Under the pieces are notes generated by a model, which did not search any database, was not told the DNA's origin, and was given only the letters and a program-made list of their open reading frames with translations. Below, in pieces: positions 39,818 through 42,936 of a DNA stretch of 64,000 nucleotides (position 1 is its first letter; every line of letters starts with the position of its first letter). The DNA is taken from assembly GCF_050920415.1 (NCBI RefSeq), contig NZ_CP169309.1. One strand, 5' to 3'. This stretch comes from Escherichia coli. GTDB lineage: Bacteria > Pseudomonadota > Gammaproteobacteria > Enterobacterales > Enterobacteriaceae. A program made the position numbers and the translations under genes.

Positions 39818-41796
<1,979 letters not shown>

Positions 41797-41798
<2 letters not shown>

Positions 41799-42936
41799 GT
41801 CAGAGCCCCTCGATCTCAATCAGTTAGCGCAAAAAATTAAACAGTGGGGGCTGGAACTGGGCTTTCAGCAGGTAGGTATTACCGATACCGATCTCAGCGC
41901 GTCCGAGCCCAAACTGCAAGCATGGCTGGACAAACAATACCACGGCGAAATGGACTGGATGGCGCGTCACGGTATGCTGCGCGCTCGCCCCCATGAGTTA
42001 TTGCCTGGTACGCTGCGCGTCATCAGCGTGCGGATGAATTACCTTCCTGCTAACGCCGCATTTGCCAGCACGCTGAAAAACCCCAAACTCGGCTATGTAA
42101 GTCGTTATGCGTTGGGCCGTGACTATCACAAACTTCTGCGCAACCGACTCAAAAAGCTGGGCGAGATGATTCAGCAACATTGTGTTTCGCTGAATTTTAG
42201 ACCGTTTGTCGATTCTGCGCCTATTCTCGAGCGCCCGTTAGCTGAAAAAGCAGGTCTTGGCTGGACAGGTAAGCACTCACTTATCCTCAATCGCGAGGCC
42301 GGTTCGTTCTTCTTTTTAGGTGAATTACTGGTCGATATTCCGCTGCCCGTGGATCAACCGGTCGAGGAAGGATGCGGTAAATGCGTGGCCTGTATGACGA
42401 TTTGCCCGACCGGCGCCATCGTCGAGCCATATACCGTCGATGCTCGCCGCTGTATCTCTTATCTCACCATTGAACTGGAAGGGGCGATCCCGGAAGAGCT
42501 GCGTCCATTGATGGGAAACCGTATTTACGGTTGCGATGACTGCCAGCTTATCTGCCCGTGGAATCGCTATTCGCAACTCACTAAAGAAGACGATTTCAGC
42601 CCGCGCAAACCACTACACGCACCGGAACTCATTGAGTTATTCGCCTGGAGTGAAGAGAAGTTTTTAAAAGTCACGGAAGGTTCGGCGATTCGCCGTATAG
42701 GTCACCTGCGTTGGCTGCGTAATATCGCCGTGGCATTAGGCAATGCCCCCTGGGATAAAACGATTTTGACAGCGCTGGAAAGTCGTAAAGGTGAGCACCC
42801 ACTTCTTGATGAGCACATAGCGTGGGCGATTGCGCAGCAAATCGAGAGGCGAAATGCGTGCGTCGTAGAGGTACAACTACCGAAAAAACAGCGTCTGGTT
42901 CGGGTGATTGAAAAAGGGTTACCGCGTGACGCCTGA
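41797..42936 (+). CDS. queG: epoxyqueuosine reductase QueG
   Basis: 379-aa product starting [23 protein letters not shown]... with 4Fe-4S Cys motifs (CGKCVACMTICP, CDDCQLICPWN); ATG at 41797 is divergent from nnr and overlaps its start codon. Confidence 0.93.

Follow-up and report, generated by a model that had tools for sequence, protein, structure and literature searches.

Annotated start codons of queG and nnr share two base pairs in Escherichia coli, with expression signals probably embedded in the partner gene

We analysed the divergent gene pair queG and nnr, which encode epoxyqueuosine reductase and NAD(P)HX epimerase/dehydratase, in a stretch of 64,000 nucleotides (nt) of Escherichia coli DNA (contig NZ_CP169309.1; hereafter the window, whose coordinates are used throughout). 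The two genes very probably form an old head-to-head pair in which the start codons share 2 base pairs (bp) and the expression signals of each gene lie in the first codons of its partner. According to the mechanism that we propose, queG is transcribed from an extended −10 sigma-70 promoter within nnr codons 12-14, starting approximately 22 nt before its ATG, and would be translated without a Shine–Dalgarno sequence from a short unstructured leader. Translation of nnr would begin at the ATG of the shared CATG by means of a GAGGGG sequence complementary to queG codons 4-5, and the nnr mRNA would start at least 335 nt upstream inside queG, either from a candidate −10 element, TAAAAT, or by read-through from the small gene yjeV. 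The queG and nnr mRNAs would be complementary over approximately 350-400 nt at their 5′ ends; they pair in vivo and are cut by RNase III, and RNA polymerases bound for nnr may cross and occlude the queG promoter.

The two genes, identified by Pfam domains and RefSeq annotation, are neighbours on opposite strands and point away from each other. Read directly from the sequence, c41796, a41797, t41798 and g41799 hold both start codons, the ATG of queG on the plus strand (41797-41799) and that of nnr on the minus strand (41798-41796). An earlier note on this DNA had claimed this 2-bp overlap within CATG, and the annotations of K-12 MG1655 and RefSeq agree with it: in MG1655, queG (4392928-4394067, minus strand) and nnr (4394066-4395613, plus strand) overlap identically at the same CATG junction, and the Prokaryotic Genome Annotation Pipeline (PGAP) gives the same 2-bp overlap in a strain identical to the window across 801 bp. 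The queG protein begins MSEPLDLNQ, its reading frame ends with the stop codon at 42934-42936, and its Pfam domains are QueG_DUF1730 and Fer4_16 (4Fe-4S); the nnr stop codon ends at 40251, and the Nnr product carries the YjeF_N (residues 40-199) and Carb_kinase domains. An 801-bp probe spanning the junction (41400-42200) matched 5425 of 5426 complete E. coli genomes, most of them at 95-99% identity. Because identity reached ≥99% in just 2 of the 5425, the window comes from an uncommon, somewhat divergent E. coli lineage, the closest match being strain MFDS1022581.

Conservation of the junction was assessed in 80 queG loci taken from a one-genome-per-species collection. For 29 Enterobacterales species besides E. 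coli, the tblastn alignments of both N-termini reached residue 1 (queG start at locus position 2501, nnr start at 2502). The exact CATG junction was kept, with no frame change, in every one of these 29, which range over Escherichia albertii, Citrobacter, Enterobacter, Kluyvera, Pantoea, Serratia, Yersinia, Rahnella, Budvicia, Edwardsiella and others, and it recurred in Tolumonas and in one metagenome-assembled genome. A census of E. coli lists 663 overlapping adjacent gene pairs, made up of 586 co-oriented pairs, 75 convergent ones and 2 that are divergent (PMC4161906). Since CATG is kept across Enterobacterales and only 2 of 663 overlapping pairs are divergent, the queG/nnr arrangement is, judged from these alignments, rare and stably inherited to a degree beyond chance.

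A sigma-70-like weight-matrix scan of our own, with a bonus for TGn, returned TGgTATACT as the top plus-strand match upstream of queG. A built-in consensus scan for sigma-70 promoters and terminators found nothing in 41300-42300; it missed the queG promoter because the latter lacks a −35 element. In a genome-wide study of transcription start sites, the start of yjeS (queG) was placed 22 nt before the ATG with the sigma-70 −10 box gtgtGGTATACTtacg, and the supplement of that study also gives the box as GGTATACT with the start at −22 (PMC2760140). The published −10 string occurs once in the window, as an exact match at 41754-41769. As in an extended −10 promoter, TG occupies −15/−14 and is followed, after one base, by a hexamer whose positions −12, −11 and −7 are T, A and T; the mapped start lies a few nucleotides downstream.

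The position of this element is tightly fixed. The final T of the element is exactly 32 nt away from the ATG of queG at all Enterobacterales loci but that of Pseudescherichia (locus L011), which has an N-terminal insertion. In the 110 nt upstream of queG, the pattern TGnTAnnnT occurs at 43 of the 46 loci in which nnr is adjacent and at 21 of the 33 in which it is not; in Brenneria, Pectobacterium and Photorhabdus, TGGTAAAAT or TGCTACACT is kept though nnr does not adjoin queG. In Vibrionales, Alteromonadales and Aeromonadales, where the two start codons are 11-90 nt apart, the motif also falls within the first nnr codons. Its persistence without nnr nearby identifies it, on comparative grounds, as the promoter of queG, and as an old one.

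The promoter has left an imprint on the protein encoded by the opposite strand. Within nnr, the longest invariant run among 17 Enterobacteriaceae is the 11-nt reverse complement of the queG −10 region. In 42 nnr genes, residue 12 is encoded by AGT (37), AGC (2), AAT (2) or ACT (1) and never by TCN; residue 13 by ATA (20), TTA (18) or CTA (3), all of the low-usage form xTA, and never by another Ile or Leu codon; and residue 14 by CCA (35), GCA (3), TCA (2) or ACA (1), all of the form xCA, and never by CCG. The codons of the nearby Ser16 are unrestricted (TCC, TCT, TCG, TCA and AGT). Read on the queG strand, the codons of residues 12-14 spell TGnTAnACT. The invariant nucleotides coincide exactly with the T-G...T-A...A-C-T of the promoter, and it is the variable ones, namely the n of TGn and the third base of the hexamer, that alter the amino acid (P/A/S/T and I/L, respectively). 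Because the invariant bases match the promoter and the variable ones alter the residue, the codon pattern indicates selection on the DNA motif, with the Nnr peptide S-[I/L]-P-[H/Q] following from it. In the AlphaFold model of Nnr (mean predicted local distance difference test score, pLDDT, 90.3), residues 1-11 and 503-515 score <50; these two disordered tails lie in the stretches that overlap the queG leader and tsaE, and the YjeF_N domain begins past the promoter-encoded peptide.

The start region of queG is the complement of that of nnr, so one 32-nt block (41787-41818) serves as the translation-initiation region of both genes. In 29 sequences, its mean major-base frequency was 0.90, versus 0.67-0.80 in the flanks. 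Third-position conservation in queG was highest here, with the top 5 of 372 windows of codons beginning at codons 1-5 (0.78-0.82; mean 0.596, s.d. 0.065), and in nnr the best non-artefactual windows began at codons 7-9 (0.77-0.81 versus 0.558, s.d. 0.078). High values at nnr codons 504-508 were set aside as an artefact, as only a few long-tail genomes fill those columns. An 81-bp core was ≥99% identical in 4829 of the 5425 matched E. coli genomes, versus 2 for the 801 bp around it. Together, these figures point to a double constraint on the block.

Within the 22-nt queG leader, pairing with the anti-Shine–Dalgarno sequence reached only −2.2 kcal/mol, equal to the random mean, and the first 86 nt of the queG mRNA folded less stably than 200 of 200 shuffled sequences (z = +2.1). 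These values suggest that queG translation would begin independently of a Shine–Dalgarno sequence, on an open site. On the nnr side, GAGGGG lies 7 nt before the ATG. The earlier note had further held that the promoter and ribosome-binding site of each gene must lie inside the coding sequence (CDS) of the other. This holds for the queG −10 and leader and for the nnr Shine–Dalgarno sequence; for queG, the ribosome-binding site is a short unstructured leader rather than a Shine–Dalgarno sequence, and 'must' is not strictly proven for the nnr promoter, which lies at least 335 nt upstream and perhaps partly past the queG 3′ end if transcription reads through from yjeV.

The first AUG of the queG mRNA, the ATG at 41787, lies 10 nt ahead of the queG ATG in another frame and begins an upstream open reading frame (ORF) that overlaps the queG start (41787-41840, plus strand, 17 codons). 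The high conservation of this ATG follows from its being complementary to nnr His4. We rejected this ORF as a coding candidate: its length ranges from 8 to >50 codons in relatives and it starts with CTG or TTG in some, which gives no evidence of coding. It is probably no gene and might compete with queG initiation.

Published transcript data place double-stranded RNA (dsRNA) over the junction. Cluster S-361 from p19 capture (U00096.2 4,391,754-4,392,109; 5,635 reads per million, RPM; stationary phase) is listed as a yjeS/yjeF 5′ overlap, ranks among the top 20 dsRNA clusters of coding genes and is cut by RNase III; the region was also detected in the Lybecker dsRNA pull-down and among the overlapping transcripts of Conway (PMC7373196, Table 2 for the cluster). 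After coordinate conversion, the right edge of the cluster and the published start site of queG are 3 nt apart. The conversion uses an offset of 1977 bp between U00096.2 and U00096.3. ExcludonFinder lists queG–nnr among 16 divergent excludons present in at least 50% of 58 MG1655 RNA sequencing samples (PMC12288877), and Conway et al. describe the yjeF...rlmB unit as their most complex operon, with 14 genes and 8 promoters.

The same cluster sets a bound on nnr transcription: because it reaches 42133, the nnr transcripts have their 5′ ends 335 nt or more upstream of the ATG. Just beyond that edge lies the 14-mer GGTCTAAAATTCAG (CTGAATTTTAGACC on the plus strand), the only invariant run of ≥11 nt in the whole of queG among 18 Enterobacteriaceae (17 species and the window). 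It covers 4 third positions, and approximately 9% of queG third positions are invariant overall. Within it, TAAAAT (42199-42194) is the best-scoring minus-strand −10 inside queG in the weight-matrix scan, with a predicted start at ~42187, 54 nt past the cluster edge. The first T of the hexamer comes from a rare Arg codon, AGA, fixed throughout Enterobacteriaceae, whereas other families use CGN. A C lies directly upstream of the hexamer, a feature typical of sigma-S promoters. In vitro, sigma-S polymerase transcribed yjeF-yjeE-amiB-mutL 1.9-2.1-fold better than sigma-70 polymerase (PMC3141248). We tentatively put forward TAAAAT as a candidate nnr −10 element, as an assignment somewhat short of an even chance; the 14-mer may instead serve another function, such as a regulator or small-RNA site. 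Two other matches were rejected as nnr promoters, as neither is conserved and the dsRNA extends past the predicted starts of both: TGgTATTGT (41942-41934, start ~41927) and TGtGATAGT (42130-42122, start ~42115).

Table 1 Features of the queG/nnr junction and its surroundings in the window (aa, amino acids)
Feature	Position	Strand	Description
CATG tetranucleotide	41796-41799	both	Both start codons inside, 2 bp in common (41797-41798)
queG CDS	41797-42936	+	Epoxyqueuosine reductase, 379 aa; ORF and translation, RefSeq annotation
nnr CDS	40251-41798	-	NAD(P)HX epimerase/dehydratase, 515 aa; ORF, annotation
queG extended −10 TGgTATACT	41757-41765	+	Inside nnr codons 12-14; no recognisable −35
queG 5′ leader, 22 nt	41775-41796	+	Antisense to nnr codons 1-8; no Shine–Dalgarno sequence
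Shared initiation block	41787-41818	both	Translation-initiation regions of both genes
nnr Shine–Dalgarno GAGGGG	41811-41806	-	Complement of queG codons 4-5 (CCC CTC), 7 nt before ATG
S-361 equivalent	41778-42133	both	By coordinate conversion; queG and nnr transcripts pair
Invariant 14-mer	42190-42203	-	Holds candidate nnr −10 TAAAAT (42199-42194)
tsaE CDS	39818-40279	-	153 aa; ORF, Pfam TsaE, annotation; ATG at 40279
nnr 3′ end/tsaE 5′ end overlap, 29 nt	40251-40279	-	From coordinates
yjeV small ORF	42919-42972	-	17 aa, MRFYFYSQAVDESGVTR; nnr strand, K-12 annotation; overlaps queG 3′ end by 18 nt
Terminator-like hairpin and T run	42994-43016	-	Just upstream of yjeV, downstream of tRNA-Gly genes
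Strong tRNA promoter	43447-43476	-	TTGCAG, 17-nt spacer, TATAAT, GC-rich discriminator; upstream of tRNA-Gly genes

The overlap would disappear if the annotated nnr start were an artefact and E. coli nnr began at Met6, which would leave the two CDSs 13 bp apart. Such a reading has an in-frame ATG 15 nt downstream of the first one to draw on, as well as the predicted disorder of Nnr residues 1-11, which may be dispensable, and initiation of queG at this locus without a Shine–Dalgarno sequence shows that a missing one is no bar to starting. Against it, the first nnr ATG forms a duplex of −7.2 kcal/mol with the 16S rRNA tail, which ranks in the top ~7% against random 22-mers drawn from the window, and the Met6 codon (41783-41781) reaches only −3.2 kcal/mol. 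The Shine–Dalgarno sequence is conserved across Enterobacterales as CCCCTCGA or CCTCTCGA, with the first ATG and GAGG kept at a fixed spacing in all, whereas only Escherichia, Citrobacter and a few others have Met at position 6, the residue elsewhere being K, E, L, V, I, Q, R, C or N; in Yersinia, Serratia, Rahnella, Budvicia and Edwardsiella, the first ATG is the sole start candidate before the conserved core. Curators of RefSeq and K-12 also place the start at the first ATG. For queG, the only in-frame alternatives are a GTG at 41752, which is not on the queG mRNA because it precedes the published transcription start, and Met52 downstream. Both start codons have strong support from these comparisons, and we regard a start at Met6 as very improbable. 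Several points nevertheless weigh against the interleaved arrangement as we read it. At locus L019 (metagenome-assembled genome CTSoil_132, ~2470-2502), a 1-nt insertion between CATG and the ATG equivalent to Met6 shifts the first nnr ATG into another frame, with a stop after 21 codons, and leaves only the Met6-equivalent ATG in frame, which favours a start there; either that codon can act as a start or the insertion is an assembly error. The published queG start site comes from two 454 reads only and lies 10 nt after the hexamer, which is slightly far (PMC2760140). The candidate nnr −10 has neither a −35 nor a TG extension and is absent outside Enterobacteriaceae, and supplements of the Cappable-seq and SMRT-Cappable-seq studies gave no match for queG or nnr and yielded no start-site data for TAAAAT. 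The supplement of a tetracycline ribosome-profiling study likewise had no entry for either gene that could give direct start-codon evidence, and our conservation statistics ignore shared ancestry. In addition, the Protein Data Bank (PDB) has no E. coli Nnr structure able to show the N-terminus.

Two further alternatives concern how nnr is transcribed and what the antisense overlap does. Instead of having its own promoter inside queG, nnr might be transcribed mainly by polymerases that read through from yjeV or from the glyV-glyX tRNA operon and traverse the antisense strand of queG in full. ExcludonFinder places yjeV-queG-nnr among 3 noncontiguous operons (PMC12288877), the consensus scan described above returned no sigma-70 promoter within 41300-42300, and a strong tRNA promoter stands upstream on the same strand with only a modest terminator-like hairpin (43016-42994) behind it. 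The abundant dsRNA, however, covers approximately 356 bp at the queG 5′ end and not the whole gene, the invariant TAAAAT 14-mer sits just upstream of the cluster edge, and a dsRNA cluster of that length does not require a full-length antisense transcript; we consider read-through as the main source of nnr transcripts rather unlikely. A functional excludon switch, in which transcription of the nnr-tsaE-amiB-mutL-miaA-hfq operon and that of queG would be mutually exclusive owing to promoter occlusion, polymerase collision and RNase III cleavage, and queuosine maturation would be inversely linked to the operon, appears to us doubtful, if somewhat less so. It would agree with the abundance of RNase III-dependent dsRNA in stationary phase, the listing of queG–nnr as a divergent excludon and within a noncontiguous operon, the conservation of the arrangement across Gammaproteobacteria and the approximately 1.9-fold preference of sigma-S polymerase for the nnr operon in vitro. 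Yet we found no report of inverse queG and nnr expression, interleaved signals that are hard to pull apart would explain the conserved layout just as well, and the queG promoter is unchanged in genomes where nnr has moved away. We thus retain, as the most probable account, an interleaved pair with embedded signals, in which a regulatory use of the antisense overlap would be an additional feature.

The depth of conservation allows us to suggest, with some reserve, a history for this pair. The queG promoter may predate the split of the Gammaproteobacterial orders and, rather than any function of the protein, fix a 'passenger peptide' in Nnr, the nnr start having later migrated to abut queG in Enterobacterales. 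The resulting obligatory antisense pair might link the maturation of queuosine tRNA inversely with the nnr-tsaE-amiB-mutL-miaA-hfq superoperon, perhaps by way of a sigma-S-favoured promoter at TAAAAT that the rare AGA codon of queG maintains. Taken as a whole, this scenario is plausible to us without being the expected outcome.

At the other end of nnr, the 29-nt overlap with tsaE that the earlier note had described was borne out by the coordinates. A comparison of this junction among relatives showed that the tsaE start is fixed and the nnr stop moves: Escherichia, Citrobacter and Phytobacter have overlaps of 29-32 nt, those of Enterobacter, Kluyvera, Superficieibacter and others measure 8 nt (ATGATTAA) and those of Pantoea, Mixta and Mangrovibacter 4 nt (ATGA), and the genes are separated by gaps of 4-30 nt in Yersinia, Serratia, Budvicia and Edwardsiella. 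E. coli has GAA where relatives have a TAA stop, adding 7 codons (ESSNSAP). Because the ancestral TAA became GAA, the 29-nt overlap is, by this comparison, an ordinary lineage-specific stop-loss extension, and the added tail is predicted to be disordered. We also located the −10 string of a published internal yjeF (nnr) start at +1113, aagcGTCACAATcgcg, unchanged at 40688-40703 (minus strand); if active, this start would provide a tsaE-amiB promoter inside nnr.

At its 3′ end, queG overlaps yjeV, so that it is overlapped by opposite-strand genes at both ends (yjeV convergent, nnr divergent), and yjeV–queG is listed in the literature as a convergent excludon. Read-through at the hairpin upstream of yjeV would carry transcripts antisense across all of queG towards nnr. 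Beyond the hairpin lie two tRNA-Gly(GCC) genes (43206-43281 and 43317-43392, minus strand), 35 nt apart, where K-12 has three (glyV, glyX and glyY); in the strain that matches the 801-bp probe at 100% identity, two tRNA-Gly genes are ~157 nt apart. The copy number and spacing of this tandem array are strain-variable. A search of Rfam found no family in or near the overlap, its only matches being the two tRNAs and a sub-threshold YrlA match spanning them.

Much of this locus was already on record. The overlap is annotated in GenBank and RefSeq, so that the rare layout was known, and the queG start site was published in 2009, the dsRNA in 2020 and the excludon listing in 2025; no new question is opened, given that the overlap, start site and antisense dsRNA already stand in databases and papers. 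As far as we found, three points are new: how deeply the junction and the promoter are conserved, evidence from codons that Nnr residues 12-15 are dictated by the queG promoter, and a candidate −10 for nnr that a rare AGA codon fixes. They refine a known case and define no new kind. The pair nonetheless offers a clean natural example of opposite-strand expression signals packed into approximately 60 bp, and it shows that a promoter is able to dictate the amino-acid sequence of a protein encoded on the opposite strand. For annotation, it makes a case against 'correcting' the nnr start so as to remove the overlap. For engineering, tags, deletions or recoding in nnr codons 1-15 or queG codons 1-6 will alter expression of the partner.

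Among known systems, the queG promoter resembles other extended −10 (TGn) sigma-70 promoters inside neighbouring CDSs, which likewise combine TGn and a hexamer with a mapped start and no −35; it differs from them in being conserved over several Gammaproteobacteria orders and in visibly fixing the codons and residues of the opposite strand. As for the overlap itself, divergent pairs formed by an upstream shift of a start codon also have overlapping opposite-strand CDS 5′ ends (PMC4161906, PMC2716372), and the outgroups whose starts are separated by 11-90 nt agree with an origin through an upstream shift of the nnr start. Divergent CDS overlaps are the rarest class of gene overlap, and many of those annotated are suspected mispredictions; queG/nnr differs in being very probably genuine, backed by order-wide conservation. 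The overlap of tsaE with nnr recalls same-strand overlaps with translational coupling of the ATGA/TAATG type, in which a downstream start likewise falls within the upstream 3′ end. Relatives show 4-nt ATGA and 8-nt forms and E. coli 29 nt, the likeness to the classic coupled overlaps being one of layout alone. Finally, the published data describe overlapping 5′ transcripts and RNase III-processed dsRNA at queG–nnr, as in divergent excludons, which were first described in Listeria and are catalogued in E. coli (PMC12288877): these too are head-to-head genes whose 5′ transcripts overlap by hundreds of nucleotides and form dsRNA cut by RNase III. Typical E. coli excludons have an intergenic region (mean 95 nt), whereas the CDSs of queG and nnr overlap by 2 bp with no intergenic DNA between them, and the functional hallmark of an excludon is mutually exclusive expression; queG–nnr resembles the class in its overlapping transcripts and its dsRNA.

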